Assembly (NCBI GenBank): GCA_016199605.1
Contig: JACQGJ010000274.1
Location: 1-32,323, forward strand
DNA length: 32,323 nt
Source: Armatimonadota bacterium
Lineage (GTDB): Bacteria > Armatimonadota > Abditibacteriia > CG2-30-59-28
Direction: 5' to 3'
The notes under the pieces are model-generated. The model did not search any database and was not told where the DNA came from. It worked only from the letters and a program-made list of their open reading frames with translations. The translations under genes and the position numbers were made by a program. This document shows, piece after piece, positions 11,536 to 25,762 of the stretch; the stretch's first letter is position 1; every line of letters begins with the position of its first letter.

Positions 11536-12759
11536 ATGGGCCTCAACGTAGCCCGAATACGAGAAGACTTCCCGTGTCTCTGCCAGGACGGAGCCGGGCG
11601 GGCCCCCGTTTATCTCGACAACGCATGCATGACTCTAAAACCGACGCAAGTGCTGGACGCTATGATGGAGTACTACACCAAGCATCCGTCCTGCCACAAA
11701 AGAGCGATGCACCGTTTCGGAGTGATGACTACAAAGAAATACGCGCGCGCGAGAAGTGTTGTTAAGGAGTATCTGAACGCCCCCAAAGATTCTGAGGTCG
11801 TCTTCACTCGGAACACGACTGAGAGTATCAACCTCGTGGCGAACTCCCTTGACTTGGCAGAAGGGAGTATCGTGCTGATCTCTGATGCCGAGCACAATTC
11901 GAACCTCCTTCCCTGGGTGTTCCTGTGTCAGAGAAGCGGACTGCTTCTCCGGACTTTCCCCGTCCGTCCCGACGGCCCTTTTGAGGGCCTGCAGGAATAT
12001 CGCGAGTGGCTCGAGACCGGAAAGGTGAAACTGGTGAGCACGTTTCACACATCCAACGTGACGGGGGTCACGCTTCCGATCAGGGAAATGGTCTCCTTGG
12101 CTCACCATCACGGCGCCATGTTTTTCCTGGACGCAGCACAGGGGCTCCCTCACCAGCCGATTGACGTGCGTGCTCCGGACGCCGACTTCGTCGCCTTCTC
12201 GTTCCACAAGGCCTTTGGTCCCACGGGTATGGGGGCCCTGTACGGTAAGACGCGGCGACTCGTAGAGCTTCGGCCTTTCCTGGTGGGCGGCGACACCATT
12301 GAGGACGCGGATTACGGTTCCTGCACCTTGTCGCCCATCCCCGAGAGATTCGAGGCAGGTTTGCAGAATTACGCTGGCGTGATCGGTAGCGCTGCAGCGC
12401 TTGAGTATCTCGCGAACGTGGGCATCGCCAATGTCGAACGGCACGAACGCGAACTCAATGAGTTCATCACAGAAGAATTGGCGAAACTCCCAAAGGTCAG
12501 GATCTTGGGGCCGCCGGACGCGGCTTCGAGAAGCTCCATCCTCAGTTTCATTGTGGAGGGGCTGGATTCGGGCGAACTGTCCATTCTGCTGGACAAATCA
12601 GCGAACGTGATGACGCGCAGCGGTGTGCATTGTTGTCATGCCTGGTTTCACAAGTATGACCTGCCTCCATCTCTTCGCGTGTCACTGTCCATCTACAACA
12701 CGCTTGATGAAGCGGAATTACTGGTGCGTACTCTGCACTCCATTGTCAAGCACTTTTGA
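11536..12759 (+). CDS. Cysteine desulfurase-like aminotransferase class V (SufS/CsdA group)
   Basis: VYLDNACMTLKP, RNTTESINLV, SDAEHNSNLLPW, HTSNVTGVTLPIREMVSLAHHHGAMFFLDAAQ, PLP-lysine motif FSFHKAFGPTGMGALYGK (Lys codon 12207-12209), and active-site loop RSGVHCCH (Cys codons 12630-12635). Confidence 0.8.
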   Translation: MGLNVARIREDFPCLCQDGAGRAPVYLDNACMTLKPTQVLDAMMEYYTKHPSCHKRAMHRFGVMTTKKYARARSVVKEYLNAPKDSEVVFTRNTTESINLVANSLDLAEGSIVLISDAEHNSNLLPWVFLCQRSGLLLRTFPVRPDGPFEGLQEYREWLETGKVKLVSTFHTSNVTGVTLPIREMVSLAHHHGAMFFLDAAQGLPHQPIDVRAPDADFVAFSFHKAFGPTGMGALYGKTRRLVELRPFLVGGDTIEDADYGSCTLSPIPERFEAGLQNYAGVIGSAAALEYLANVGIANVERHERELNEFITEELAKLPKVRILGPPDAASRSSILSFIVEGLDSGELSILLDKSANVMTRSGVHCCHAWFHKYDLPPSLRVSLSIYNTLDEAELLVRTLHSIVKHF

Positions 12760-12900
12760 CCGGCTGCAAACGGATCGTCGCAGGCAAGACCTCGTCCCCC
12801 TTGAAACGCGGGTGGAGATCACTCGTTAAGAAATTGATATCAGAGCATCGATCCTCCGAGGGACTCGAAGCGCCGCCCCATAGATTCAGGAAATCGCAGT

Positions 12901-14592
12901 ATGGAAAATCGGAAGATTCTCATCATCGGACTGGATGGGGCGACCTTGGACTTGATCCTGCCCTGGGCGAGGGAAGGCAAGCTCCCGACCCTTGCGAACC
13001 TCATGGACCGGGGCGTTTGGGGCAACTTGCGCTCCACGATTCACGCGCTCACGCCGCAGGCTTGGTCTTCCTTCATGACCGGCAAGAACGCGGGGAAGCA
13101 TGGAGTCTTTGACTTCACGGAACTGAAGCCCGGCACCTACGAGATTCAGTTTATCAATGGCAGTCACCGGCAAGGGGAGTCTTTCTTTCAGATTTTGGGA
13201 AGGGCGGGATTCCCCGTGGGTGTCGTCAATGTGCCCTTTACTTATCCGCCCGAGAGGGTCAATGGGTTCATGATCGCCGGCTTTGATGCGCCGTCTTTGG
13301 ATGACACCATCTCCTGGCCACCGGAGGTCATCAGGGAAGTTATGCAGGAGATTGGAGCCTACTACCACCGCGGCACTTTTCCGCTGGGCACCACGCCGGG
13401 CACCTTCAAGGTAACGAACATCGACCCGGTGATCCAGAACCGGACAGCAGTCGCGACTTACTTGATGCGGAAATATCCCTGGGATGTCTTCATGACCGTG
13501 TTCAATGAGACGGACCATGTCCAGCACTTCTTCTGGAAGGAGATGGAGGGGAAGGGACCGCTTGGGGACCGGTTTAAGGATGTGATCTTGCACACATACC
13601 AGAAAATCGATGAGGCGGTCGGGGCCTTGCTCACCCATGTCGGAAAGGACTGCACGGTGCTCATCATGTCCGACCACGGCGCCGGTCCGCTGAGGAAGAC
13701 GGTATGTCTGAATCGGTGGCTTCGTGACATGGGGTATCTCAAGTACAAGTCCGAAGGCGCGGAGGGCGGCAGGGAACGAGGGCTCAAAGAGTTGCGGTAT
13801 CGGCTTGTTCGGGGGCTGCGTCGAGCTTCCAAGCGGTATCTACCCAACTCAGTGAAGGCCCGACTCCGTCCGATGGTCTCTGACTTAGTCGAGAAGCGTG
13901 ATACTTACTTGCTGTCAAACCAGGTGGACTGGTCCCAGACGCGAGCCTATGCCTTCGGGATCTATGGCAACATTTACCTTAACATTCAGGGACGGGACCG
14001 CGAAGGAATCGTGGCTCCGGGCGATGAGCAGGAAGCCTTGGTCCGAGAGATCACAGGCAAACTGATGGAGCTCAAAGACCCGGAAACGGGGGAACCCGTG
14101 GTTGAACGAGTGTACCGCAGGGAAGAGCTTTACAGCGGTCCCCACACGAGCAAGGCCGCGGATCTGATCGTGATGTTTGAAGACTACGCTTACTTCACCG
14201 AACAGAGCTTCCGTGATTCGGAATCTTCGCTTTTCGGGGATATGCTCATTCAGGACTGTTCCGACTATCCTTTGACCGGAATCCATCGGCTGGAGGGTCT
14301 GTTCATGGCGGCGGGGCCGGGAATCAAACGTGGGCTTAGAATCCCTGAGGCCAGCCTGCTGGATTTGGCGCCGACGATTCTGCATATCATGGGACTCCCC
14401 GTTCCTGAGGACATGGACGGATCCGTCCTTCGGTCCATCTTCGAAGAGGGCAGCGATCTGGAGAGGCGGCCTGTGATGTACGAGAAACCTTCGGCCACCG
14501 ACGACGGTGATGATCGGTCGCTGCGACCTTACTCGGAAGAAGAATCCCAGGAGATGTACGACCACCTCAAAGGTCTGGGCTATGTGAGCTAA
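12901..14592 (+). CDS. Alkaline-phosphatase-superfamily protein (type I phosphodiesterase/nucleotide pyrophosphatase-like), paralogue 1
   Basis: Metal-site pattern ILIIGLDGAT (Asp codon 12934-12936). Nucleophile region ALTPQAWSSFMTGKNAGKHGVFDF, then LIMSDHGAG and GIHRLEG. C-terminal tail YSEEESQEMYDHLKGLGYVS. It aligns end to end with 19019-20773 and 20780-22525. There is no room for a signal peptide. Confidence 0.8.
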   Translation: MENRKILIIGLDGATLDLILPWAREGKLPTLANLMDRGVWGNLRSTIHALTPQAWSSFMTGKNAGKHGVFDFTELKPGTYEIQFINGSHRQGESFFQILGRAGFPVGVVNVPFTYPPERVNGFMIAGFDAPSLDDTISWPPEVIREVMQEIGAYYHRGTFPLGTTPGTFKVTNIDPVIQNRTAVATYLMRKYPWDVFMTVFNETDHVQHFFWKEMEGKGPLGDRFKDVILHTYQKIDEAVGALLTHVGKDCTVLIMSDHGAGPLRKTVCLNRWLRDMGYLKYKSEGAEGGRERGLKELRYRLVRGLRRASKRYLPNSVKARLRPMVSDLVEKRDTYLLSNQVDWSQTRAYAFGIYGNIYLNIQGRDREGIVAPGDEQEALVREITGKLMELKDPETGEPVVERVYRREELYSGPHTSKAADLIVMFEDYAYFTEQSFRDSESSLFGDMLIQDCSDYPLTGIHRLEGLFMAAGPGIKRGLRIPEASLLDLAPTILHIMGLPVPEDMDGSVLRSIFEEGSDLERRPVMYEKPSATDDGDDRSLRPYSEEESQEMYDHLKGLGYVS

Positions 14593-14610
14593 TGTGAAAG
14601 CAGATAATCA

Positions 14611-16131
14611 ATGAGCACGATGTCCGCTACGCAGTGCAATCCCTATGCTGGCAACGCTCGGCGTCTGGTGTGGCTCTACCTGCCCCTGATTGTCCTGGGC
14701 TGCACCTACGCCTATGGGTTTGCCGCATATCCCCCTTACGCAGTCATGGCCCTCGTTGGGTTGCTGGCTCTGGTGCCGGTCTTGCTGCGGACGGATCTTG
14801 TCGTTGTGAGTCTGTTCTTTCTAATCCTTATGGGGAGGCTGCAGTACATCGATGCCGGGGGGCAGTTAACCGTATCGAAAATCGTGGTGGCCTTGGTGGG
14901 GGTCATCTGGCTCGGCAAGATGATCATCACGCGCGATGGCAGTCCCTTACGTCAAGCAATGGCAAGCCCGGTTTCCATCTGTCTGTATCTATTTCTGATC
15001 GTCAGTTTCATCAGTTTCATAAACGTAACGCCGAAGGCTCTCACTTACTCTGTGAGGTATTACATGCGCGGTATATTCCTGCTGATGATGTACTGGCTGA
15101 TGGTTCATTATATCCGAACTTCCACACGCTTCAAGCAAGCCATGGCCCTGATGGTGATCGCCGGAGTCCTGGTCTGTTTCATGGGTTTCTATGAAGTCAA
15201 GACACACAAGTCGATCGCAACGTTAGTCGGGCGGAATACGACCTTGATCTCTGGCGGGGACGCGGGACTTGAGACCTCAATCCGAACGGGTCCTACCGCC
15301 AATGTCACTGGCATCGACGTGCAGTCCGCGATGTCGAAAGCGACGGGGGCCCAATGGGCTCGTCCGATGACCACCTTCGTGGATTCCAACCACATGGCCC
15401 TTTCCCTCGTGGGAATCCTCGGGTACACGATCGCGCTCTTCCTGATTGCGGGATCGAAGAGGATGCGCGGTTGGTTGGCAATGGCCATGCTGGTCATGAT
15501 CCCGAACATTCTCTGTACCGGATCGCGCACGGGGTTGGCTTGTATGCTCCTATTGATTCTGCTGCTAATTGCCATGTCCAAGCTGCGAGGCAAAATCCCG
15601 ATCGGGATCACGTTCCTGGCTGTGGCTGCGTGCGTCATGCTGCTCTTTCCCGACACGATGAAGCAGTTCCGGAAGGGGGTCACGACCGATGATCCTCGCT
15701 CCGGACTCTGGCACATGGCGTTGTCCATGGTTAGGGAACACCCACTGGTCGGCGTGGGGCCCGGAAACTTCGTCTACAGGTATATGGAGTATCGATTACC
15801 CTACAAAGCGCCCAAGGCGTATATGGTCCGTTTCACTGCGGGATCTCGGTATATGACTGTCCTCGCAGAGAACGGGATATTCGGCTTGCTGGCCTGGCTG
15901 GCGTTGATGTTTTCCAGCATCTATGTCTTCTACCGTTACAGCCGATATGCTCCCACTCAGGAATGGCGAGACATCTCCAAGTGCCTGTTCGCAGTCACGA
16001 TCTGCTACGCACTCATGGCAGTTGTGCACGACTTCCAGTACGACCAGAGCTTGTGGGAACTATTCGTATTTGCAACCGTCTTACCAGCCGTTACGGCCGA
16101 GGCTGAGAAGCTTCCCGAAGCCCAATCTTGA
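14611..16131 (+). CDS. O-antigen ligase / Wzy-like polysaccharide polymerase (Wzy_C family)
   Basis: Polytopic membrane protein with ~10-12 TM segments. It has the typical segment CTGSRTGLACMLLLILLLIAM, a large loop, and HPLVGVGPGNFVY. Confidence 0.75.
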   Translation: MSTMSATQCNPYAGNARRLVWLYLPLIVLGCTYAYGFAAYPPYAVMALVGLLALVPVLLRTDLVVVSLFFLILMGRLQYIDAGGQLTVSKIVVALVGVIWLGKMIITRDGSPLRQAMASPVSICLYLFLIVSFISFINVTPKALTYSVRYYMRGIFLLMMYWLMVHYIRTSTRFKQAMALMVIAGVLVCFMGFYEVKTHKSIATLVGRNTTLISGGDAGLETSIRTGPTANVTGIDVQSAMSKATGAQWARPMTTFVDSNHMALSLVGILGYTIALFLIAGSKRMRGWLAMAMLVMIPNILCTGSRTGLACMLLLILLLIAMSKLRGKIPIGITFLAVAACVMLLFPDTMKQFRKGVTTDDPRSGLWHMALSMVREHPLVGVGPGNFVYRYMEYRLPYKAPKAYMVRFTAGSRYMTVLAENGIFGLLAWLALMFSSIYVFYRYSRYAPTQEWRDISKCLFAVTICYALMAVVHDFQYDQSLWELFVFATVLPAVTAEAEKLPEAQS

Positions 16132-16154
16132 TGGGACCATGAGGTGACAACAGA

Positions 16155-17561
16155 ATGAAATCATTGCACAAATCACACGCCGTCAGGTTTGCCGCGCTGG
16201 CCATTGCAGCGCTCATGACTCTTGTGGGAGTATCGGAATTGGTGAAAGGAAGACTCCTGTCTGCAGAGGCGAGAGGTTCCGAGGGCCATTCATCAGTCGC
16301 TCTGCCAGTTCTAACCTCCTCCGGAAAGGCCTCTCCCTTCGGTCTGATGGGACTGGACCGTCCTGAGGAAGCGATGCCTTACATCAAGGATCTTGGATTT
16401 GGTTGGCTACGACTCGCACAAGTTGATTGGGGCCGCTTCGAACCGACTCCAGCGCAATACCAGTGGGGGATGGGAGATCGTTTTGTGGCCTTGGTCAAGC
16501 GGGAGGTTCCGCGTGTTCAACTCCTGGGTACCATTCGTGCCATTAACCCCTGGGCTGTTCCTCAGGAAAACCACGCAGAAATGCTTTCTCGCGCTGCCGG
16601 CAAACCCGAGAATCTTAAGGACTACTATCGCTTCGTATACCAGCTCGTTAAGCACTTTTCCCCTGACATCAACTACTGGCAGATCGAGAACGAGATGGAG
16701 ACGCTACCGATGTGGAAAGATGACGCCGGGGCCTACCTTGAGCTTCTGAAAACAGGTTACCGGGCCGCGAAAGACGCCAACCCAAGTTGCGTCATAATCC
16801 TCGGCGGCTTCACCGACAGAACCATTAACATGCACCTCGGGAAAGTCCATCCTTCGGATGAGGTCGTCGGAGACTGGAGCCCCTTGACACAGAAACAACG
16901 CCTTGAAAGATCGGCCAAGTTTGCGCAAACGGTTCTCGACAAGGGAAGTGCCTACTTCGATATCGTTGATCTACACGCGTACGGGCCCTACACCGAGATC
17001 CCCGAGCTGGTTCAATGGCTCAAGAATGCCATGAAGCGCAATGGCTATCAGAAGCCGATTTGGGCGACAGAGATCAGCGGCCCCACGGAGAAGTATAGTG
17101 AACAGAGGCAGGCTGAGGAAGCAGTGAAGAGGACGATTCTCGCTCTCTCCGAAGGGGTGGAAAAGGTTTTCTGGTTTAGCCTCTTTGACGCGAACACGAA
17201 GCAGGAGAGATTCCGGAAGCTGGGTCTCACGACCCGGGATATGCGGAAGAAACCGGCATACTTTACGTACCGATATATGACCCACCACTTGGACGGCTGC
17301 CGTTTCGTTCAGAAACTGAAGGTGGGACCGGGGGTTCGGGCGTTCCTCTTTCGAAGCGTCAGCGAGGGGGAGAAAGGGGCCCCTGGAAGGAGGGTGGCCG
17401 TCCTGTGGAGTGATACTGGGGGCAGTGTGCAAATCCCTGTCATGGGTAAGAAAGTGACTGTTACAGACTCTGTGGGGAAAGTCCTTGAGACTGCCCCTGC
17501 AAACGCTACAAAGATAGCGCTCAAAGTAGGATCCAGCCCAATCTATGTCGAACAGAAATGA
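16155..17561 (+). CDS. Secreted clan GH-A (TIM-barrel) glycoside hydrolase, PslG/GH5/GH39-like EPS hydrolase candidate
   Basis: Signal peptide (FAALAIAALMTLVGV). Acid/base motif YWQIENEME (Asn-Glu codons 16689-16694). Nucleophile motif PIWATEISGP (Glu codon 17070-17072). C-terminal beta-sandwich-like tail. The exact GH family is not assignable by eye. Confidence 0.7.
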   Translation: MKSLHKSHAVRFAALAIAALMTLVGVSELVKGRLLSAEARGSEGHSSVALPVLTSSGKASPFGLMGLDRPEEAMPYIKDLGFGWLRLAQVDWGRFEPTPAQYQWGMGDRFVALVKREVPRVQLLGTIRAINPWAVPQENHAEMLSRAAGKPENLKDYYRFVYQLVKHFSPDINYWQIENEMETLPMWKDDAGAYLELLKTGYRAAKDANPSCVIILGGFTDRTINMHLGKVHPSDEVVGDWSPLTQKQRLERSAKFAQTVLDKGSAYFDIVDLHAYGPYTEIPELVQWLKNAMKRNGYQKPIWATEISGPTEKYSEQRQAEEAVKRTILALSEGVEKVFWFSLFDANTKQERFRKLGLTTRDMRKKPAYFTYRYMTHHLDGCRFVQKLKVGPGVRAFLFRSVSEGEKGAPGRRVAVLWSDTGGSVQIPVMGKKVTVTDSVGKVLETAPANATKIALKVGSSPIYVEQK

Positions 17562-17691
17562 CTCCTGGGGGAACCCCAGAACTGCCCCACATCCCCGATC
17601 AGTGTTGGACTTCCTACTGTTTTATTGCTCGTAATCTCGGCGCCGACAGTTCTGCAGGCAAACCTGATATCGGGGCAGGAGTTGACGCTAC

Positions 17692-17904
17692 ATGTTCGAA
17701 CGTTTGTTGGGTGACAGGAAAGACAGCATCGGTTCACGTGCGACGGTTCTGTGCAGCGACCGCCACGACAGGTACAGCATTGCATTGGAGAGCGACCGCG
17801 TGCAGGTTTTCGAATGGGGAGGACGAAAAGTCCTGATTGAGACAGGAGAACGCAAGGTCACGCTGGACCTCGGCCCGAGACCGGTGTTTCTGGTGGAACT
17901 CTAA
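17692..17904 (+). CDS. 70-aa ORF resembling only the C-terminal tail module of the neighbouring GH (orphan module or gene remnant)
   Basis: ..RATVLCSDRHDRYSIALESDRVQVFEWGGRKVLIETGERKVTLDLGPRPVFLVEL parallels ..RVAVLWSDTGGSVQIPVMGKKVTVTDSVGKVLET..KIALKVGSSPIYVEQ. Its TAA stop is 2 nt before ATG 17907 of the next gene. Confidence 0.3.
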   Translation: MFERLLGDRKDSIGSRATVLCSDRHDRYSIALESDRVQVFEWGGRKVLIETGERKVTLDLGPRPVFLVEL

Positions 17905-17906
17905 GC

Positions 17907-18995
17907 ATGTACCGACACTCCGACTCTCTGACATATCGGCATTTACAGCCCGACGACGTCGGTCCCTGCTCCCGGTTGCTTTCCAGCATCTTCGGCTCCT
18001 CTGTCTCCGCAGAAGACCTTTTCTGGAAATCCTTCCAGAACCCCAACAACGCTTCGCACGCGTGGGTGGGGCTGAGTGACGGTGAGATCGTCGGTCTGCT
18101 GAACGTGATCCCCCGGCGAATCCAGGTCGGCTCCCATCGCGGCCTGGCTTTCGAGGCGACGGATGTCGTCGTGAAACCTCTCCATCGCGCTCAAGGGGTA
18201 CTCGTCATCAAGGAGATGACTCGCCTGATGTCAGAGGAGGTCAGTAGCAGAGGCGACACTCTGTTGCTTTACGGTGTGCCTAACCGCTTGTTCTACCCCT
18301 ACTCCAAGAAGTTCCTCCGTTACCAGTCTGTGATGGCGGTGCCCCAACTCGCGCTTGTTCTCAACCCGGCGGCGCCGCTGCTGCGGCGCATACCGGGGTC
18401 GAGGAAGCTGTGTCGCGGGTCGGGGTTGTGTCGCATACCGATTGCCCGCGCCGTCACCTTCGGCATGACCCGGAGAACCGACCTCGAGGTTGTCCACCTC
18501 AACCGGTTTGGCGCGGACTGTGACGCTCTATGGGAGGCATCAGCGGATCAGTTTGACATCATCATCCAACGGACCTCGGAGCAGCTCAACTGGCGTTTTG
18601 TTCAGCGTCCATCGAGAGAATACCGGATCGTGAGCGTTCGAGATTCGAGCGCCTTGAGAGGATATGCGGTACTCGGCTTCACCCAGGATGCCTCACTCCG
18701 CAAAGCATACGTCGCTGACTTCTTTACGGCGCCCAACGACCAACAGGCTGCCCGACTGCTGATTCGGAGCGCAGTTCTCATCTGCGCCCGTGGTGGTGCC
18801 GACGTGGTGACCTGTTGGGCTCAACCCGGCTCTCCCTTCTATGGGCTGTGGCGAAGAGGCGGTTTCTTGCCGAATCCCCAGTCCAGGCATTTAGTCACCC
18901 GTGCCTTTGACCTGGACGCAATACCGGGCGAAGCTGAGAGACTATTTCAGCCGCGTCGATGGTACGTTACCCACAGCGAGCATGACATTTATTAA
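17907..18995 (+). CDS. GNAT-family acyltransferase, two-lobed (362 aa)
   Basis: N-terminal lobe with AWVGLSDGEIVGLLNVIP..FEATDVVVKPLHRAQGVLVIKEM (an R-x-x-G-x-type acyl-CoA motif). The second lobe looks GNAT-like (LRGYAVLGF..AYVADFF..AARLLIRSAV..GADVVTCW). Confidence 0.65.
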   Translation: MYRHSDSLTYRHLQPDDVGPCSRLLSSIFGSSVSAEDLFWKSFQNPNNASHAWVGLSDGEIVGLLNVIPRRIQVGSHRGLAFEATDVVVKPLHRAQGVLVIKEMTRLMSEEVSSRGDTLLLYGVPNRLFYPYSKKFLRYQSVMAVPQLALVLNPAAPLLRRIPGSRKLCRGSGLCRIPIARAVTFGMTRRTDLEVVHLNRFGADCDALWEASADQFDIIIQRTSEQLNWRFVQRPSREYRIVSVRDSSALRGYAVLGFTQDASLRKAYVADFFTAPNDQQAARLLIRSAVLICARGGADVVTCWAQPGSPFYGLWRRGGFLPNPQSRHLVTRAFDLDAIPGEAERLFQPRRWYVTHSEHDIY

Positions 18996-19018
18996 CTCGA
19001 GAATACAGGTTTGCAGGT

Positions 19019-20773
19019 ATGGATCAATCAACCAAACGTCGCATGGTCATCATTGGAGTAGATGGGGCCACGTTCGATCTGATCAAGCCCTGGGTTGCGG
19101 AGGGCAAGCTGCCCACCTTTGCGCGCATGCTGCGGGAGGGCACTCATGCACCTTTGAGGTCCGTCATCAGTCAACGTAGTGCCGCCGCCTGGACCTCCTT
19201 CGCCACTGGCAAGAATCCCGGGAAGCATGGGATCTACGATTTCTGGCATCGGGTCCCCCACAGCTACGCGATTCGTTTCATCAACGGCAGCGCCCGGATC
19301 GGCAAGGCGGTTTGGGACTATGTCAGCGACGAGTGCGGGCGCGCCATCGTCATGAACGTCCCGATGACCTACCCGGCCAAGCCGGTGAACGGGATACTGA
19401 TCTCCGGCATGGATGCCCCGGGAATCGACAGCGCAAGCTTCAGTTATCCCCCGGAGGCAATCGATGAATTGCTTAAGGCTAACGGCGGATACGTAATCGA
19501 GCCGGGAGTCACCAGTCTTTGCATCGCTGGGAAGTATGGCGAGGCGATTTCCGCTATGAAGCAGGCAGCGGAACTTCGCTATCTGGCTGCCAGGCACTTG
19601 ATGGAGAATCACCCTTGGGACCTGTTCATCGTCGTCTTTAGGGAGACGGATCCCATTCAGCATACCTTCTGGAAGTTCATGGATTCCACCCACCCTGACC
19701 ACGATCCTGAGTTGGCAGCGTTATACGGAGAAGCGATCTTCGAGGTTTACGATCAACTGGATCGTCTCATCGGACAACTCATTGACAAGGTTCCCTCCGG
19801 TGTGCCCGTTCTGGTTCTCTCGGATCATGGCTTCGGAATCAACCAGGGCGGGAATGAGCATTTGCCTGCGTGGCTGGAGGGCAGGGGCTTGATGCGATTC
19901 ACAACCGCGGAGGCGGGGCGTCGTTTCGGACAATTTGGGGGCTTCCTGCAGACGCTGGTTGTGCACGGGATCTCCGCCCTCTTTGACCAGGTCCATCGCC
20001 GGACGAGCCGAAAGACCAAAGAAAGGCTCAGTCGATGGTTCCCTCAGGTACGTGAAAAAGTGCAAGCGCATCTAACCCTTGGAGGCGTCGACTGGTCCAC
20101 GACGCTTGCCTTCGCGGACGGAGCACGAGAGAACATCTGGATCAACCTGAAAGGACGCGAGCCGGAAGGCATCGTCGAGCCGGGCGAGGATTACGATGCG
20201 TTGGTATCCAGAATTGCCAAGGAACTTTTGGTGATGACAGATATCAAAACAGGAGAACCTGTTGTCGAAGCCGTTCACCGAGGGACTGAGGTCTATCATG
20301 GGGACTACCTGGACCAGGCCGCCGACCTGATTATTCAGTGGAAGGAGCATACCGTAATCTCCGGACTGGCGTCACCCGACGAGGATCCAAAGGGAAGGCG
20401 GAGTCACCGAAGAGTATGCTATCTGCCCGGGGAAGAGGCACGGCACATCAGCGGATATCATCGGTTGCACGGGATTCTCATCGCCGTGGGTGAAGGGATA
20501 AAACGTGGAACCCATGTTCCAGAAGCGGAGATCGTAGACATTGCTCCGACGATTCTGCACATGATGGGACTTGGGGTCCCGGAGGATATGGATGGGAGAA
20601 TTCTCACGGAAATCCTTCTCGACGAAACGCAGGCCGTCACGGTGAGAAGGGGGACCAATGGAATCGCAGAGGCAGGCGCTGAGCCGGCCTTAACGCAAGG
20701 CGAGGAGGAGGTCTACTCGGAGGAAGATGCAGCGAAAATCGCTGAGCGTCTGAAGGGATTGGGATATCTGTAG
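19019..20773 (+). CDS. Alkaline-phosphatase-superfamily protein (phosphodiesterase/nucleotide pyrophosphatase-like), paralogue 2
   Basis: MVIIGVDGATFDLIKPWVAEGKLPTF, SQRSAAAWTSFATGKNPGKHGIYDF, VLVLSDHGFG, SGYHRLHG, and tail YSEEDAAKIAERLKGLGYL. Confidence 0.8.
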   Translation: MDQSTKRRMVIIGVDGATFDLIKPWVAEGKLPTFARMLREGTHAPLRSVISQRSAAAWTSFATGKNPGKHGIYDFWHRVPHSYAIRFINGSARIGKAVWDYVSDECGRAIVMNVPMTYPAKPVNGILISGMDAPGIDSASFSYPPEAIDELLKANGGYVIEPGVTSLCIAGKYGEAISAMKQAAELRYLAARHLMENHPWDLFIVVFRETDPIQHTFWKFMDSTHPDHDPELAALYGEAIFEVYDQLDRLIGQLIDKVPSGVPVLVLSDHGFGINQGGNEHLPAWLEGRGLMRFTTAEAGRRFGQFGGFLQTLVVHGISALFDQVHRRTSRKTKERLSRWFPQVREKVQAHLTLGGVDWSTTLAFADGARENIWINLKGREPEGIVEPGEDYDALVSRIAKELLVMTDIKTGEPVVEAVHRGTEVYHGDYLDQAADLIIQWKEHTVISGLASPDEDPKGRRSHRRVCYLPGEEARHISGYHRLHGILIAVGEGIKRGTHVPEAEIVDIAPTILHMMGLGVPEDMDGRILTEILLDETQAVTVRRGTNGIAEAGAEPALTQGEEEVYSEEDAAKIAERLKGLGYL

Positions 20774-20779
20774 CCTATT

Positions 20780-22525
20780 ATGAGCAACCACGGAGATTCA
20801 GCCAACGGCAAGCGACGGCTGTTTGTATTTGGGATAGACGGGGCGACCTTCGACCTGATCAAACCTTGGGCCGCGGAGGGGAAGCTTCCTACGTTTGAGC
20901 GTCTCCTCGCGAGAGGCGCCCACGCTCCCGTTCGTTCGACTCCCAACCAACGTAGCGCGTCGGCCTGGGCCTCGCTCGTAACCGGCAAGAATCCCGGGAA
21001 ACACGGCATCCTCGAGTTCTGGGATCGGTTGTCGAACTCCTACGAGATCCAGTTCACCAACGGAAGCTGGAGGGACGGGAAGTCTCTGTGGGAATTGATG
21101 AATGACACAGGTCGCCAGACGACAGTGATCAATGTGCCCATGACCTACCCGGCGCGTCCCTTGAACGGGGTGTTGATCGCTGGAATCGACTCCCCGGGAA
21201 TCGACAGCGATGGTTTCTGCTATCCTCCCGGAGTGATCAAGGAGATACTGCAAAGGAATGGGAACTACATCCTGGAGCCCGGGGTCGCCACCCTTGCGCT
21301 CACGGGCCGCGAAGGAGAAGTCTGGGATCTCGTCCGAGAATGTACAGTTCTTCGCAAGAAGGCAGCGGATTACCTGATGGACAGTTGTCCGTGGGATTTT
21401 TTCATGGTTATCTATCGCGCAGCGGATGCCGTACAGCATTTTTTCTGGAAGCATATCGATCCGAAACACCCGCGGTATTGCAGAGAAGAGGCGGAGAAGT
21501 ATGGAGATGTGATTCTGAAGCTTTACCAGCAACTGGACGAGCTTCTCGCCGACACCCTTCTCCAGATCGACGAGGATACGACGCTTGTGGTCGTGTCGGA
21601 TCACGGCTTTGGACACAATCAGGGAGCTAATGCGCACTTGTACAACTGGTTGGAGGACCTGGGATTGATGGCGTTCCTGGACGAAAGTCACAGGGGAGGC
21701 TTCGGGAATCGGCTTCGGTCGATCTGCTTGCGGAGCCTTGCCGGAGTATATCGACAGATACAGCGACACACGGATCGGCGCATGAAAGAAAGGCTTTGGA
21801 GGCTGTTCCCGGGGCTCAGAAACAAAGTGCAATCCAAGCTCTGGTACGCGGAGATCGATTGGTCCAGAACCCGGGTCTACTCTGACATCGCCCGGGAAAG
21901 CCTGTGGGTGAATCTGAGGGGGCGTGAGCCGCGGGGGATCGTGGAGCCAGGTCAAGAATCTGAAGAGATCCTCAAGTTTGTGGAGGATCAACTGATGGCT
22001 TGCACCGATCCCCTGAGCGGGGAGAAAGTTGTGGAGCAGGTACATCGCAAGGAGGAACTGTACCACGGACCGTACGTCTGTCGAGCCCCGGACTTGAATA
22101 TCGAATGGAGACCCGACGTTTACATCGGCGGTATGGTTTCGCCGGCGTGTCGATCACGAAGCGACCGCGACCGTTCCGGTGGATCGGTTGCACGAAAGCC
22201 AGCCGAGAAGTTCCTGATTACCTCAGGGCAACATCGACCTCACGGAATCTTCCTTGCCTATGGCAAGGACATCCAACCGGGGTGTCGTCAGAACGAACTC
22301 AACATTGTGGATGTGGCTCCCACGCTGCTTCATCTGATGGGGATCCCGATCCCAGATGATATGGATGGCATCGTCGCGACGGACATCGTCAGCCCGACGG
22401 CAGAATTGGGGCCGCCTCAGTACGTTCCTGCGAGTTCCTTTGACAGTCCCGGTGAGTCCTCCCACTACTCTGAGGATGAGTCTGGCGTGGTGGAAGACCG
22501 ATTGCGAGGGTTGGGGTATCTGTAA
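20780..22525 (+). CDS. Alkaline-phosphatase-superfamily protein (phosphodiesterase/nucleotide pyrophosphatase-like), paralogue 3
   Basis: LFVFGIDGATFDLIKPWAAEGKLPTF, NQRSASAWASLVTGKNPGKHGILEF, LVVVSDHGFG, SGQHRPHG, and tail YSEDESGVVEDRLRGLGYL. It starts 6 nt after the paralogue 2 stop. Confidence 0.8.
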   Translation: MSNHGDSANGKRRLFVFGIDGATFDLIKPWAAEGKLPTFERLLARGAHAPVRSTPNQRSASAWASLVTGKNPGKHGILEFWDRLSNSYEIQFTNGSWRDGKSLWELMNDTGRQTTVINVPMTYPARPLNGVLIAGIDSPGIDSDGFCYPPGVIKEILQRNGNYILEPGVATLALTGREGEVWDLVRECTVLRKKAADYLMDSCPWDFFMVIYRAADAVQHFFWKHIDPKHPRYCREEAEKYGDVILKLYQQLDELLADTLLQIDEDTTLVVVSDHGFGHNQGANAHLYNWLEDLGLMAFLDESHRGGFGNRLRSICLRSLAGVYRQIQRHTDRRMKERLWRLFPGLRNKVQSKLWYAEIDWSRTRVYSDIARESLWVNLRGREPRGIVEPGQESEEILKFVEDQLMACTDPLSGEKVVEQVHRKEELYHGPYVCRAPDLNIEWRPDVYIGGMVSPACRSRSDRDRSGGSVARKPAEKFLITSGQHRPHGIFLAYGKDIQPGCRQNELNIVDVAPTLLHLMGIPIPDDMDGIVATDIVSPTAELGPPQYVPASSFDSPGESSHYSEDESGVVEDRLRGLGYL

Positions 22526-22529
22526 AGGG

Positions 22530-23708
22530 ATGGGACCTTCGGAACGTGTAGTCATGCTGTTCTCCAATTCGTTCGAGCCGTTCCAGGGCCGTTACCATCG
22601 GGTCTATAACGAAGCGAGGGTCCTGATCACTCACGGGTTTCATGTCACCCTGCTCGCCTGGGACCGTGGCTTGCACTGCAAGCCCATAGAAACAGTCGAC
22701 GGGATTGAGGTTCGACGGTTTCGACTGAAAGCGGGTGAAAAGACCGGACCACGGTTGCTGCCAAAGCTATTGCTTTACTGGCTTTGGATCTTGCGGGACC
22801 TGGGGAGGGAACCGTGCGAAGTGCTGCACCTTCACAACATTGACGTGCTCCCCCTGGGTGTGTTCGTTAAGTGGACCCGCAAAGCCGTGGTCCTTCTCGA
22901 TGTCTGCGAGCCGGATTACTACACGTTGTGGGACGACCGACTGACTCCCTTGGTAAGGATGATCGCCGCGATGGAACGAGGCCTGTCACGACGAGTGGAC
23001 GCGGTGCTCGTCCACAATCGCTACCAAGTCCGCAAGTACAATGCCTGGGGCATCGGGACCCTTGAGCAAGTGGGGAGTTACCCCACCTCGTCCATGATCC
23101 AAGCCAAGCCGAGACCTGGGGGTGAAGAGGTTCGGACAATTACGTTCGGGACCGTTGGAACCTTCTTCCACAACTCCGGCGGTGAAGAAACGATAGCCGC
23201 CTTCGGTGAGTTGGCCTCCAGGCACGATCAAGTACGGCTCCTGCTCGCAGGTCGTGTCATGGAATACTACCGGGAACATTTTGAGGACCTCCTTCGTCCA
23301 TTGGGTGACAGAGTCGAGGCAACCGGAGCGTTCGATTCGGCGAGGATTCCTGAGATGTACCAGAGAATTGACGTCTCGGTGATGGTTTGCAGACGGGATC
23401 GCTGGTACCGCAACATCACCCCAACCAAGTTCTTCGACTCGCTCGCCAACGGTGTACCGGTGATTGCCTCTGATATCGGAGGGTTGGGTGAGCTTATCTC
23501 TGAGATCGGATGCGGAATCGTTGTCGATGAGACAAGAACCTCCCAAATCGCCGGAGCTATGGAATATATGATTGAGCACCCCATTGAACGGGCGGCAATG
23601 GGAGAGCGGGCTCTGGCCGCAGCGCGAACGCAATACAACTTCGAGAAGTCGGGACAGCGTCTCCTCAAAGTTTACCGGTCCCTGACCGGCGTCAGCAGTA
23701 GTAGTTAG
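22530..23708 (+). CDS. Glycosyltransferase, GT4 family (WbuB-like subgroup)
   Basis: VVMLFSNSFEPFQGRYHRVYNEARVLITHGFHVTLLAWDR. The C-terminal lobe has TPTKFFDSLANGVPVIASDIGGLGELI instead of the classical E-x7-E. The start is set at ATG 22530, 4 nt after the upstream stop. The ORF-track start at 22356 overlaps the preceding gene. Confidence 0.8.
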   Translation: MGPSERVVMLFSNSFEPFQGRYHRVYNEARVLITHGFHVTLLAWDRGLHCKPIETVDGIEVRRFRLKAGEKTGPRLLPKLLLYWLWILRDLGREPCEVLHLHNIDVLPLGVFVKWTRKAVVLLDVCEPDYYTLWDDRLTPLVRMIAAMERGLSRRVDAVLVHNRYQVRKYNAWGIGTLEQVGSYPTSSMIQAKPRPGGEEVRTITFGTVGTFFHNSGGEETIAAFGELASRHDQVRLLLAGRVMEYYREHFEDLLRPLGDRVEATGAFDSARIPEMYQRIDVSVMVCRRDRWYRNITPTKFFDSLANGVPVIASDIGGLGELISEIGCGIVVDETRTSQIAGAMEYMIEHPIERAAMGERALAAARTQYNFEKSGQRLLKVYRSLTGVSSSS

Positions 23709-23765
23709 TCATATCTCATCGACAACCGCATCGCGATGACCTTAACGGGTGGTACCGAATAAATC

Positions 23766-24488
23766 ATGGAAGAACTCCGAAGCAGTCACGTCACAGCAAT
23801 ACCGAGAGAGCGATATGAGGAGAATCGCGGCACACTCCAGCTTGCAGACCACGCGCTCCCGGTTTATAGGACCGAGGGTCTCTATGCACGATGGATCAAG
23901 CGGGCTTTCGACATCGCTGGGTCCCTTGTGCTGATTGTCCTGGTCAGCCCGGTTCTGCTGATCGTGGCCCTGGGTGTAAAGCTCACCTCGAAAGGTCCCG
24001 TGCTATTTCTCCAGGAGCGCGTCGGAAAAGGCGGAAGACTCTTCAGTTTCGTTAAATTCCGGTCGATGCATGTGAACCAGGAGGAGTTCCCGGTCAACGA
24101 GACAGTCAAGGACATGGCGGAGCACGGGCTACTGTTCAAGGTCGAAGACGATCCGCGTGTGACTCCCTTTGGCCGGATCATCCGCAAGACGTCGGTTGAT
24201 GAATTGCCTCAGCTCTTCAATGTTCTCCTGGGAGATATGAGTTTTGTGGGTCCCCGACCGTTGGTTGATTTCATGTTCATCAGGCATCCCGAAGAGAAGG
24301 AAATCCGATGTCTGGTTCGTCCCGGGATCACGGGTTTCTGGCAAGTATTTGCCCGGTCTGACAGCACCGCGCTTCACCAGATGCTGGAATATGACGTGCG
24401 CTATGTAGAGAAAGTATCCTTGTGGACTGACCTGAAGCTGATGCTGCTGACCATCCCTGCAGTGATCTCGTGCCGCGGCGCGAAGTAG
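23766..24488 (+). CDS. Initiating phosphoglycosyl transferase (bacterial sugar transferase family, small WbaP/EpsL-like PGT)
   Basis: KRAFDIAGSLVLIVLVSPVLLIVALGVKLTSKGPVLFLQERVGKGGRLFSFVKFRSM, DPRVTPFGRIIRKTSVDELPQLFNVLLGDMSFVGPRP. Confidence 0.85.
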   Translation: MEELRSSHVTAIPRERYEENRGTLQLADHALPVYRTEGLYARWIKRAFDIAGSLVLIVLVSPVLLIVALGVKLTSKGPVLFLQERVGKGGRLFSFVKFRSMHVNQEEFPVNETVKDMAEHGLLFKVEDDPRVTPFGRIIRKTSVDELPQLFNVLLGDMSFVGPRPLVDFMFIRHPEEKEIRCLVRPGITGFWQVFARSDSTALHQMLEYDVRYVEKVSLWTDLKLMLLTIPAVISCRGAK

Positions 24489-24595
24489 GTTGTCGGAGGA
24501 TCACACGAGGGAATCCCTACCCAAGCTGCCGCGAACGAACTTGGTGTAACACCCCCATAGGACACGACGTCTCCCCCGGTGTGGTCACCCGACTT

Positions 24596-25762
24596 CTATG
24601 TTCGTTGGTCCGACCCTTCACGGCCGGTTGACCAAGTGCGCATCCTCAACCCTCCCAGATACCGCACCAAAGCCCAGAAGGCAGATAGATTGATTAGAGT
24701 TAGGAAGAAGGGCGTTGACAGCAGCTTGTGTCTCGCTGCACCTCGCCGGGATTCCAGGTATCCTGCCAGCGCGAACACATAAAACACCAACTGGGCGGCC
24801 ACGACTGTGCGATAGAAGGGACCGGAGAGGGCGAGACTGGCTGAGCTGATCAGGAGCAAGACCCCGGACAGTCCAACAAGCCAGCGAGCGACTTTGCGCG
24901 ACCAGACGTGAACAGCGAATATGGGATGTCGGGTGATGTTCAGGAACCTGCCCATGCGCCCCGCCATAGTGAATCCTCGCACGGTATTGCGGAAGTGCAT
25001 CTTGAACTCAGCAGCCACGGCTTCGTGGGATTCCTCGACGAACACAGCTTCCGGATCGTAGAGTGTCCGGTATCCCGAGTTGACCACATGGAGCGACCAC
25101 ACCTGGTCGAATTCAAGCTCTCCAGGGAGAGGCAGGAACAAGTCTCGGCGAATGGCCGTCATCGCCCCCAGAGTGAAGGCGGTTGAATGGACCGAAGATT
25201 CCGCAAGACGGAGGGCGTTCTCGTACCGCCAATACAGGCCCTGCCCTCTCGAGATTTGGCTCTCTGCGGCGCGCAGCACCCGTCTTCCACTCACACAACC
25301 GACGGAGGTGTCCGCAAAGCCGCGGACGAGTTTCTTCAAGGACTCCTTCTCAAAGAACGAATTGGCGTCAGTGATCACGATGATGTCGCCCGTGCATTGG
25401 TTGACCGCGTGACTTAATCCGCCGATCTTGCCAAGCTGCTGTTCGTTCCTTTTCAACTCAACTCGCGGGGCAAACTCGCGGACGATCTCCTCCGTGCGGT
25501 CTGTTGATCTATCGGAGACAACAAGGATCTGGAGTCTGTCCGCGGGATAGTCGAGGCCGCAGCTATTCTCGAGCTTCTGTCGAATAACTCCCTCTTCATT
25601 GAACGCCGGGATCAGCAGGCTCAATGCGGGTTCTACGTCTTCCTGTCGGACAGGGCGAGTTTTGAGGCACCGCGCCAGGAGGAGCACGCACGGATACAGG
25701 AAGTAAGCATAGGCTATCAGAAAAAGGGACAGCCAGAACAGGACTACAAGGCAAGTCATCAA
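24596..25762 (-). CDS. Membrane-embedded family 2 glycosyltransferase (N-terminal TM, GT-A domain, C-terminal TM bundle)
   Basis: LSLLIPAFNEEGVI, ILVVSDRSTDRT, DIIVITDANSFF, GCVSGR, GLYWRYE, GAMTAIRRDLF, flanked by hydrophobic helices at both ends. Confidence 0.8.
   Translation of the reverse strand: MMTCLVVLFWLSLFLIAYAYFLYPCVLLLARCLKTRPVRQEDVEPALSLLIPAFNEEGVIRQKLENSCGLDYPADRLQILVVSDRSTDRTEEIVREFAPRVELKRNEQQLGKIGGLSHAVNQCTGDIIVITDANSFFEKESLKKLVRGFADTSVGCVSGRRVLRAAESQISRGQGLYWRYENALRLAESSVHSTAFTLGAMTAIRRDLFLPLPGELEFDQVWSLHVVNSGYRTLYDPEAVFVEESHEAVAAEFKMHFRNTVRGFTMAGRMGRFLNITRHPIFAVHVWSRKVARWLVGLSGVLLLISSASLALSGPFYRTVVAAQLVFYVFALAGYLESRRGAARHKLLSTPFFLTLINLSAFWALVRYLGGLRMRTWSTGREGSDQRT

Follow-up and report, generated by a model that had tools for sequence, protein, structure and literature searches.

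Three diverged AlkP-superfamily paralogues in a polysaccharide locus of an Armatimonadota bacterium and their putative role in glycan assembly

Paralogues and the features of their family

The window analysed here is the whole 32,323-nucleotide stretch of contig JACQGJ010000274.1 (assembly GCA_016199605.1) from an Armatimonadota bacterium. It is a polysaccharide locus in which three plus-strand genes encode paralogous proteins of the NPP/alkaline-phosphatase (AlkP) superfamily. Paralogue 1 (P0001, 12901..14592) is 563 amino acids (aa) long and carries Thr at the nucleophile position, while paralogue 2 (P0002, 19019..20773, 584 aa) and paralogue 3 (P0003, 20780..22525, 581 aa) both carry Ser. 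As reported in a preliminary description of this DNA, the open reading frames (ORFs) of paralogues 2 and 3 are separated by only 6 nt (TAG-cctatt-ATG) and align end to end with each other and with paralogue 1; the N-termini quoted there are also exact. Identity over these end-to-end alignments is 46-47% between paralogues 2 and 3 (E=3e-178) and 39% between this pair and paralogue 1 (E=2e-115). All three proteins match PF01663, at 143.6 bits for paralogue 1 and 117.7 and 139.5 bits for the other two against a cutoff of 23, and all three are full-length open frames. The database label for their branch is "predicted AlkP superfamily phosphohydrolase/phosphomutase" (COG3379 type), and homologues carrying this JGI label were matched at E 1e-140 to 1e-260. 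The hallmarks of the COG3379 type, namely a length of about 540-590 aa, no transmembrane (TM) segment, the motif TGxNPGKHG, a basic insertion of about 80 aa and a C-terminal LGY tail, are all found in the three paralogues. The idea that some copies might be decaying duplicates without catalytic residues is contradicted by the 34 family-invariant columns, every metal ligand included, all of which are intact in each of the three. A fourth and divergent family copy (30% identity) is encoded on contig C21 of the same metagenome-assembled genome, which is 72% complete (G000:C21:7924-9711; L004:1396-3183). This copy has A-x-D-A in place of G-x-D-G and L in place of the N of TGxNPGKHG; of its tail, the Y-S-x-E-E part is gone and RLRGLGYW remains.

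AlphaFold2 models based on 121-sequence alignments gave a predicted local distance difference test score (pLDDT) of 88.9 and a predicted template-modelling score (pTM) of 0.91 for paralogue 2, and 91.2 and 0.92, respectively, for paralogue 1. The top Foldseek matches of paralogue 2 in the PDB are all nucleotide pyrophosphatases/phosphodiesterases (NPPs): ENPP1, snake-venom phosphodiesterase, autotaxin, Xac NPP and ENPP5/6. These matches have a probability of 1.00, E-values of about 1e-13 and identities of 11-14%, with TM-scores of 0.42-0.49 normalised to the query and up to 0.67 normalised to the target. Paralogues 1 to 3 possess no signal peptide and no TM-grade segment, their maximum 19-residue hydropathy being 1.29-1.35, and the first metal-binding Asp is found at residue 12-20. 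The three proteins are accordingly predicted to be cytoplasmic, because they lack a TM-grade hydrophobic segment and place the first metal ligand no more than 20 residues from the start.

NPP-type ligands are present in all three proteins: the Asp of G-x-D-G-A-T, Asp-x3-His, S-D-H-G and the late His of G-x-H-R. They correspond to D12, D205-H209, D258-H259 and H462 in paralogue 1, to D15, D211-H215, D269-H270 and H481 in paralogue 2, and to D20, D216-H220, D274-H275 and H485 in paralogue 3, and are invariant across the family. The nucleophile is Thr51 in paralogue 1 (codon 13051..13053, plus strand; T-P-Q-A-W....T-G), which aligns with the formylglycine position and with the NPP Thr signature, Ser54 in paralogue 2 (19178..19180, plus strand; S-A-A-A-W....T-G) and Ser59 in paralogue 3 (20954..20956, plus strand; S-A-S-A-W....T-G). 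This assignment was made because, in a HMMER comparison of a three-paralogue profile with PDB sequences, the Ser/Thr column falls on the formylglycine Cys of sulfatase 9bb9 (X in 9bes), with the T-G at +9/+10 from the nucleophile in register with 9bb9/9bes. In the family set (n=542) the nucleophile is Ser in 330 proteins and Thr in 212, and nothing else; the Asp-His pair is kept in 542/542 and the final His in 541/542. Sets of paralogue-2-like sequences are mostly Ser-type and those of paralogue-1-like sequences mostly Thr-type. The contrast between Ser in paralogues 2 and 3 and Thr in paralogue 1, to which attention had been drawn earlier, is thus real but common family-wide, and by these alignments it is a subfamily trait and no peculiarity of this locus.

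A basic helical insertion follows the S-D-H-G motif. It covers residues 263-342 of paralogue 1 (13687..13926, plus strand; 80 aa, 21 Lys+Arg against 8 Asp+Glu), where AlphaFold2 predicts helices at 290-341 with pLDDT 61-80, residues 274-357 of paralogue 2 (19838..20089, plus strand; 84 aa, 13 against 6) and residues 279-359 of paralogue 3 (21614..21856, plus strand; 81 aa, 14 against 7). The Arg-rich insertion previously noted in paralogues 2 and 3 is therefore present but not special to them, as paralogue 1 also has it, in the most basic version found among the three. Family medians for the insertion are 76 aa in length and +9 in net charge, against an acidic median of -13 for the remaining protein; in 98% of tailed members the insertion has a net charge of +4 or more. 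Such a basic amphipathic insertion is most simply read as a putative peripheral membrane anchor.

The C-terminal tail is YSEEESQEMYDHLKGLGYVS in paralogue 1 (14530..14589, plus strand), YSEEDAAKIAERLKGLGYL in paralogue 2 (20714..20770, plus strand) and YSEDESGVVEDRLRGLGYL in paralogue 3 (22466..22522, plus strand), all three being as printed earlier. AlphaFold2 places a helix at residues 546-558 of paralogue 1 (pLDDT 76-83) and at residues 568-580 of paralogue 2 (pLDDT 58-61), the latter behind a linker with pLDDT 44-52. In form, the modelled tail resembles a docking helix, with hydrophobic residues at i/i+4/i+7 followed by G-Y-Φ, carried on an acidic and poorly predicted linker. The pattern L-x-x-[LM]-G-Y plus 1-2 residues ends all 121 sequences of the first homologue set, 96 of which fit the narrower L-[RKQ]-x-L-G-Y. 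It is found in 116+2 of 118 paralogue-2-like and 117/120 paralogue-1-like homologues, in 129/138 library representatives (most of the others being variants) and, by a position-specific profile, in 229/248 homologues. Overall, 509/542 homologues (about 94%) from more than 12 bacterial and archaeal phyla carry it. Its profile is Y(79%)-[ST]-x-[ED]-[ED]-x3-[IV]-x2-R(89%)-L(100%)-[RK]-x-[LM]-G(100%)-Y(100%)-[ILV]-[EDG], and in the 121-sequence alignment G582 and Y583 are as invariant as the metal ligands. The tail is also retained in loci whose neighbouring genes differ. The preliminary description had suggested a docking or oligomerisation peptide, with the GNAT, GT4 or Wzy neighbours as partners to be tested, and had named a generic family terminus as the finding that would speak against this; a generic terminus with invariant G-Y is what the homologues display (121/121, 117/120, 509/542). 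Since this C-terminus occurs whatever the neighbours are, the tail is no docking peptide specific to this locus.

A scan of all 8,525 stop-to-stop frames of the source genome with a length of 150 aa or more found that a C-terminal L-x-x-[LM]-G-Y ends no other protein family. Besides the four family members, the same scan returned two convincing look-alikes (the unrelated ORFs C465 and C629) and two weaker hits, and the possibility that the tail is a motif common to other pathway proteins was rejected on this result. A form of 450-506 aa, without the LGY tail and with the insertion largely missing, is encoded in loci L020-L042 (Chthoniobacterales), L094, L099, L100, L086 and L024; those of L094, L099 and L100 are from related Armatimonadota genomes. 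A short uncharged insertion is seen in 14/33 tailless but only 2/509 tailed sequences. This joint loss, in about 2-3 clades and with exceptions, is suggestive only, but it hints that the tail and insertion may work together.

Locus layout, neighbourhoods and fusions

All genes of the locus lie on the plus strand apart from that of Wzx, which is on the minus strand. The order begins with a Wza-like exporter, Wzx, a Wzz-like protein, a short BY-kinase-like ATPase, a NodB-type deacetylase and a GT4 glycosyltransferase. It continues with a WbuX-like amidotransferase, a small ORF, a SufS-like gene, paralogue 1, a Wzy-like polymerase and a glycoside hydrolase, and ends with a GNAT-domain gene, paralogues 2 and 3, a second GT4 gene and a Bac_transf priming transferase. 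Paralogue 1 is flanked by the SufS-like gene and by the gene of the Wzy/O-antigen-ligase-like polymerase (14611..16131, plus strand; PF04932), 18 nt downstream. The GNAT-domain gene (17907..18995, plus strand; PF13527) ends 23 nt before paralogue 2, and the downstream GT4 gene (22530..23708, plus strand) has its likely start at ATG 22530, 4 nt after the stop of paralogue 3, so that spacing from the GNAT gene through the tandem pair to GT4 is tight (23, 6 and 4 nt). As listed, this GT4 ORF (22356-23708) would overlap paralogue 3 by 170 nt; the in-frame ATG at 22530 is the likelier start. The priming enzyme, a polyprenyl-phosphate glycosyl-1-phosphate transferase of the Bac_transf type (23766..24488, plus strand), matches PF02397 at 214 bits and TIGR03025 at 268 bits, the latter below its cutoff of 295.55 bits. 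Promoter and terminator scans of positions 12000-25000 gave no signal above chance, and an operon is therefore the simplest reading of the locus.

In a genome of the same family (G001), one contig (C305; locus L091) contains two consecutive cassettes of Wzz, BY-kinase-like, Wzy and family-enzyme genes, the first of which is followed by a glycoside hydrolase resembling that at 16155-17561 of the window. The adjacency of Wzy and enzyme seen at paralogue 1 recurs there and in loci L082 and L010.

Neighbourhoods of the family were sampled at 80 genomic loci with ±10 kb flanks from more than 12 phyla. Immediate neighbours are dominated by GT4, GT2, Wzx, Wzy-like proteins, NodB deacetylases, hexapeptide acyltransferases and PMT_2/GT-C proteins, and further include LPG_synthase_TM, GHMP kinases, methyltransferases and a few radical-SAM/SPASM genes. 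GT4 is the commonest non-family neighbour (10/72 downstream, 7/68 upstream), and the share of loci with any one neighbour family does not exceed about 15-25%; these tallies include orthologous loci and so are not independent counts. A conserved order of tailless copy, GHMP kinase, tailed copy and small hexapeptide-repeat protein is observed in the Chthoniobacterales. In 4/68 loci, family members are directly preceded by radical-SAM and SPASM genes, an arrangement that recalls the pairs of sulfatases and anaerobic sulfatase-maturating enzymes (anSME).

Two natural fusions were encountered. In Candidatus Amarolinea aalborgensis (NZ_UETR01000001.1; L050:1424-4792), one ORF of 1122 aa joins a Wzx flippase (PF01943) to a complete tailed family domain, which follows a K/R-rich juxtamembrane stretch of Wzx by way of a Pro/Ser-repeat linker. 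In the sister loci L017 and L019, members of the same clade stand directly downstream of a separate Wzx gene. The second fusion, of 1104 aa (L101:8001-11315, Logan SRR22388302 contig), combines a Thr-type tailless domain with a Ser-type tailed domain and is preceded by another single family copy and a Wzx; the other frames at its junction contain no concealed tail motif. The genomic context supports a cytoplasmic, membrane-proximal role tied to the assembly of lipid-linked repeat units, and it leaves room for a possible association between paralogues.

Copy number and phylogeny

A profile search of 1.84 billion cluster representatives (clusters at 50% identity) retrieved 10,833 at E<=1e-30 and 21,327 at E<=1e-10. 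Tail carriers are distributed amongst Chloroflexota, Verrucomicrobiota, Planctomycetota, Thermodesulfobacteriota, Armatimonadota, Acidobacteriota, Actinomycetota, several candidate phyla and two archaeal lineages. A cultivable carrier of the family is the planctomycete Maioricimonas rarisocia, whose P0052 shows 42% identity. At least two family genes are present in 32/80 loci, with directly adjacent copies in 14, and the copies are nearly always co-directional. The paralogue set had been regarded as the most conspicuous content of the locus, but clustered copies in 40% of related loci (32/80) make it typical of the family. The family is present in only 8/41 related genomes, and copies per carrier genome include four in the genome studied here and seven or more in each of G001 and G025.

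Phylogenetic analysis was performed with FastTree on 166 sequences and with IQ-TREE (LG+C20) on 45, and the two trees agree. Paralogue 3 is sister to a group of paralogue 2, P0004, P0006 and the G001 orthologue (SH-like 98, SH-aLRT 99), while paralogue 1 belongs to a distant clade together with copies from Thermodesulfobacteriota (support 95-100). The branch of paralogue 3 is long (0.66-0.75) compared with that of paralogue 2 (0.29-0.31). Orthologues of paralogue 2, 57-63% identical, occur in the Armatimonadota genome of the same family and in metagenome contigs; their loci contain a single copy, always upstream of a GT4 and a GT2/Bac_transf gene. For paralogue 3, no relative above 47% identity was found among 5.8 billion proteins. 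The tree that had been called for to date the duplication thus indicates that the duplicates are old: paralogue 1 is distant, and the split between paralogues 2 and 3 predates the divergence of paralogue 2 from its orthologues in the same-family genome. From the single-copy loci of the paralogue-2 orthologues and the lack of any relative of paralogue 3 above 47% identity, the tandem pair is taken to be an old duplication within a conserved module of enzyme, GT4 and priming transferase, retained only here as far as sampled.

Clustered copies of other phyla likewise belong to different deep clades (L010, L011, L082, L037/38/43, L017/19/50), which argues for long-standing functional differentiation and against redundancy. 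Loci with clustered copies are of roughly 10 mixed, 13 Thr/Thr and 4 Ser/Ser types, and a rule pairing Ser-type with Thr-type copies was therefore discarded. Of the earlier suggestion that three diverged copies in one operon are not redundant, the core stands, given the old split, the distinct clades and the intact active sites; an association between paralogues is only plausible, and a locus-specific partner of the tail is not borne out. Taken together, the comparisons across homologues indicate that the tail, insertion, Ser/Thr difference and multi-copy layout are hallmarks of the family and not of this locus.

Interpretation and comparison with known systems

The best explanation of the whole is that the three genes are intact, long-diverged members of a large NPP/AlkP branch that act non-redundantly on glycan intermediates, to which we assign a probability of roughly 0.55. 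The enzymes would be active on the cytoplasmic side of the membrane, anchored peripherally by the basic insertion, and would catalyse formation or cleavage of a phosphodiester or pyrophosphate linkage within a glycan precursor before Wzx flips it; cleavage or transfer at such a bond is suggested by NPP chemistry. Candidate precursors are an NDP-/CDP-activated (nucleoside or cytidine diphosphate) donor and an undecaprenyl-diphosphate-linked repeat unit, a sugar phosphate being a further possible substrate, and each paralogue may have a substrate or position of its own, hence the lack of redundancy. As a conserved docking helix, the tail could engage the enzyme itself, either in cis or between protomers or paralogues, and not the variable neighbours. 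Paralogues 2 and 3 would have arisen by the old lineage-specific tandem duplication inside the enzyme-GT4-priming transferase module.

Several observations weigh against this interpretation. A PDB sequence search with the profile of the three paralogues found no close solved relative, and a literature search returned nothing on the COG3379-type branch, nor any characterised member of it; for these reasons the substrate, the direction of the reaction (hydrolase, transferase or mutase) and the membrane association are all inferred. The tail helix is less confidently predicted in paralogue 2 than in paralogue 1 (pLDDT 58-61 versus 76-83). Covariation between tail and core, calculated as mutual information with average product correction on 507 sequences (effective number 345), reached a top score of 0.10 against a global 99.9th percentile of 0.19, and is uninformative because the anchor columns of the tail are invariant. 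Both fusions are single instances, L101 being a singleton cluster, the neighbour tallies include orthologous loci as said above, and the association with GHMP kinase in Chthoniobacterales fits a soluble sugar-phosphate role equally well.

A more ambitious version of the preferred reading holds that the COG3379-type family performs an unrecognised cytoplasmic step of the Wzx/Wzy pathway, either transfer of a phosphodiester substituent or proofreading cleavage of the undecaprenyl-diphosphate-linked repeat unit before flipping. Assemblies of paralogues, held by the invariant LGY helix and tethered to the inner leaflet by the basic insertion, would carry it out, and the three copies would install or check three features of one repeat unit. 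This version is speculative and we consider it rather unlikely in full.

Two alternatives retain some weight. The paralogues might be obligate hetero-oligomers, the tail acting as an arm swapped between protomers of one multi-subunit enzyme. The co-occurrence of distinct deep clades within loci of several phyla (L010, L011, L082, L037/38/43, L017/19/50) is in keeping with this, as are the 1104-aa fusion of a tailless Thr-type with a tailed Ser-type domain and the short tailless copies that adjoin tailed ones. However, about 60% of loci are single-copy within ±10 kb, the orthologues of paralogue 2 stand alone, no rule of Ser/Thr pairing applies (see above) and the 1104-aa fusion is a singleton; moreover, complete active sites in all copies mean that none resembles a scaffolding pseudo-enzyme. 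An obligate assembly is thus doubtful. Alternatively, the proteins may be soluble enzymes of precursor supply, such as a sugar-phosphate phosphatase/phosphomutase or a nucleotide-sugar pyrophosphatase, with no contact with lipid-linked intermediates. Their cytoplasmic nature without TM segment, the nucleotide pyrophosphatases as nearest folds, the existence of cytoplasmic phosphomutases in the AlkP superfamily, the database name "phosphohydrolase/phosphomutase" and the GHMP sugar kinase placed between two copies in 9 Chthoniobacterales-type loci are all compatible with such a role. It is made improbable by the scores of NCBIfam mutase/phosphatase models (15-23 bits against cutoffs of 330-860), by the conserved, strongly basic amphipathic insertion and the Wzx fusion, which point to the membrane, and by the usual neighbours, which are transferases, flippases and polymerases, not genes of nucleotide-sugar synthesis.

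The proposal that the tail is a docking or oligomerisation peptide recruiting the enzymes to GNAT, GT4 or Wzy, in a paralogue set special to this exopolysaccharide locus, draws on properties typical of a partner-binding motif, in that the helix is short and amphipathic, sits on a flexible acidic linker and is modelled by AlphaFold2 with low to moderate confidence, and on GT4 being the most frequent non-family neighbour (10/72 downstream, 7/68 upstream). It is very unlikely, as about 94% of 542 homologues, drawn from more than 12 phyla, possess the tail irrespective of neighbours, no neighbour family exceeds about 15-25% of loci and the motif ends no other protein family in the source genome. 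Finally, decay or redundancy of one or more copies, for which the long branch of paralogue 3 (0.66-0.75 versus 0.29-0.31) and its lack of an orthologue elsewhere could be cited, is hardly credible, for all three frames are open and full-length with the 34 family-invariant residues kept, including ligands, nucleophile and tail G-Y, and identities of only 39-47% speak for long retention.

For this locus the result is deflationary: the window adds one three-copy example and gives no unique handle on the problem. The family itself is notable: it comprises more than 10,000 clusters in bacteria and archaea, is almost always encoded in glycan-assembly loci and conserves its C-terminal motif as strictly as its active site. 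Knowledge of its reaction would allow thousands of polysaccharide loci to be annotated, and might bring to light a cytoplasmic step of phospho-modification or quality control that acts on lipid-linked sugars.

Among known systems, LtaS, EptA/MCR-1, OpgB and GacH are AlkP-superfamily enzymes that use a Thr/Ser nucleophile and a covalent phospho-intermediate in the phosphodiester decoration of envelope glycans and lipids. They are encoded in envelope-glycan loci and have N-terminal TM domains followed by extracytoplasmic catalytic domains of the PF00884 type. The paralogues differ from them in possessing no TM segment, in having a catalytic Asp within the first 20 residues and in belonging to the PF01663 type, with PF00884 matched below cutoff. 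Type I sulfatases with anSME share the nucleophile column, which corresponds to the formylglycine Cys, the T-G in register and the radical-SAM/SPASM genes upstream in 4/68 loci; unlike them, the family has S/T-x-x-x-W in place of C/S-x-P/A-x-R and an Asp-His metal site (542/542) in place of Asp-Asn. A sulfatase/anSME reading, suggested by the Ser nucleophile and the radical-SAM/SPASM neighbours, was rejected on the Trp instead of Arg at +4, the invariant Asp-His and the PF00884 scores of 17-22.5 bits against a cutoff of 25.

Phosphoglycerate mutases of the iPGM type and phosphopentomutases, to which the "phosphomutase" of the database label alludes, are likewise cytoplasmic, bind two metals and use a Ser/Thr phospho-enzyme mechanism. 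They yield only short C-terminal matches (14-15 bits against cutoffs of 330-860) and have different inserted domains; the NCBIfam equivalogs iPGM, phosphopentomutase, PhnA and PafA scored 14.5-23.5 bits, far below their cutoffs of 330-862.

The NPPs (PF01663; Xanthomonas NPP 2gsn/7mw8, ENPP1 4gtw and ENPP6 5egh) belong to the same Pfam family and share the α/β core, the two-metal ligands Asp, Asp..His, Asp-His and His, and a nucleophile at the start of a helix with T-G at +9/+10. Identity to them is only 12-13%, and the paralogues are predicted to be cytoplasmic, with neither signal peptide nor anchor. In the present family Ser replaces Thr in about 60% of members and Trp replaces His at +4, and the shared core is supplemented by the TGxNPGKHG motif, the basic helical insertion of about 80 aa, a β-rich subdomain and the acidic LGY tail.

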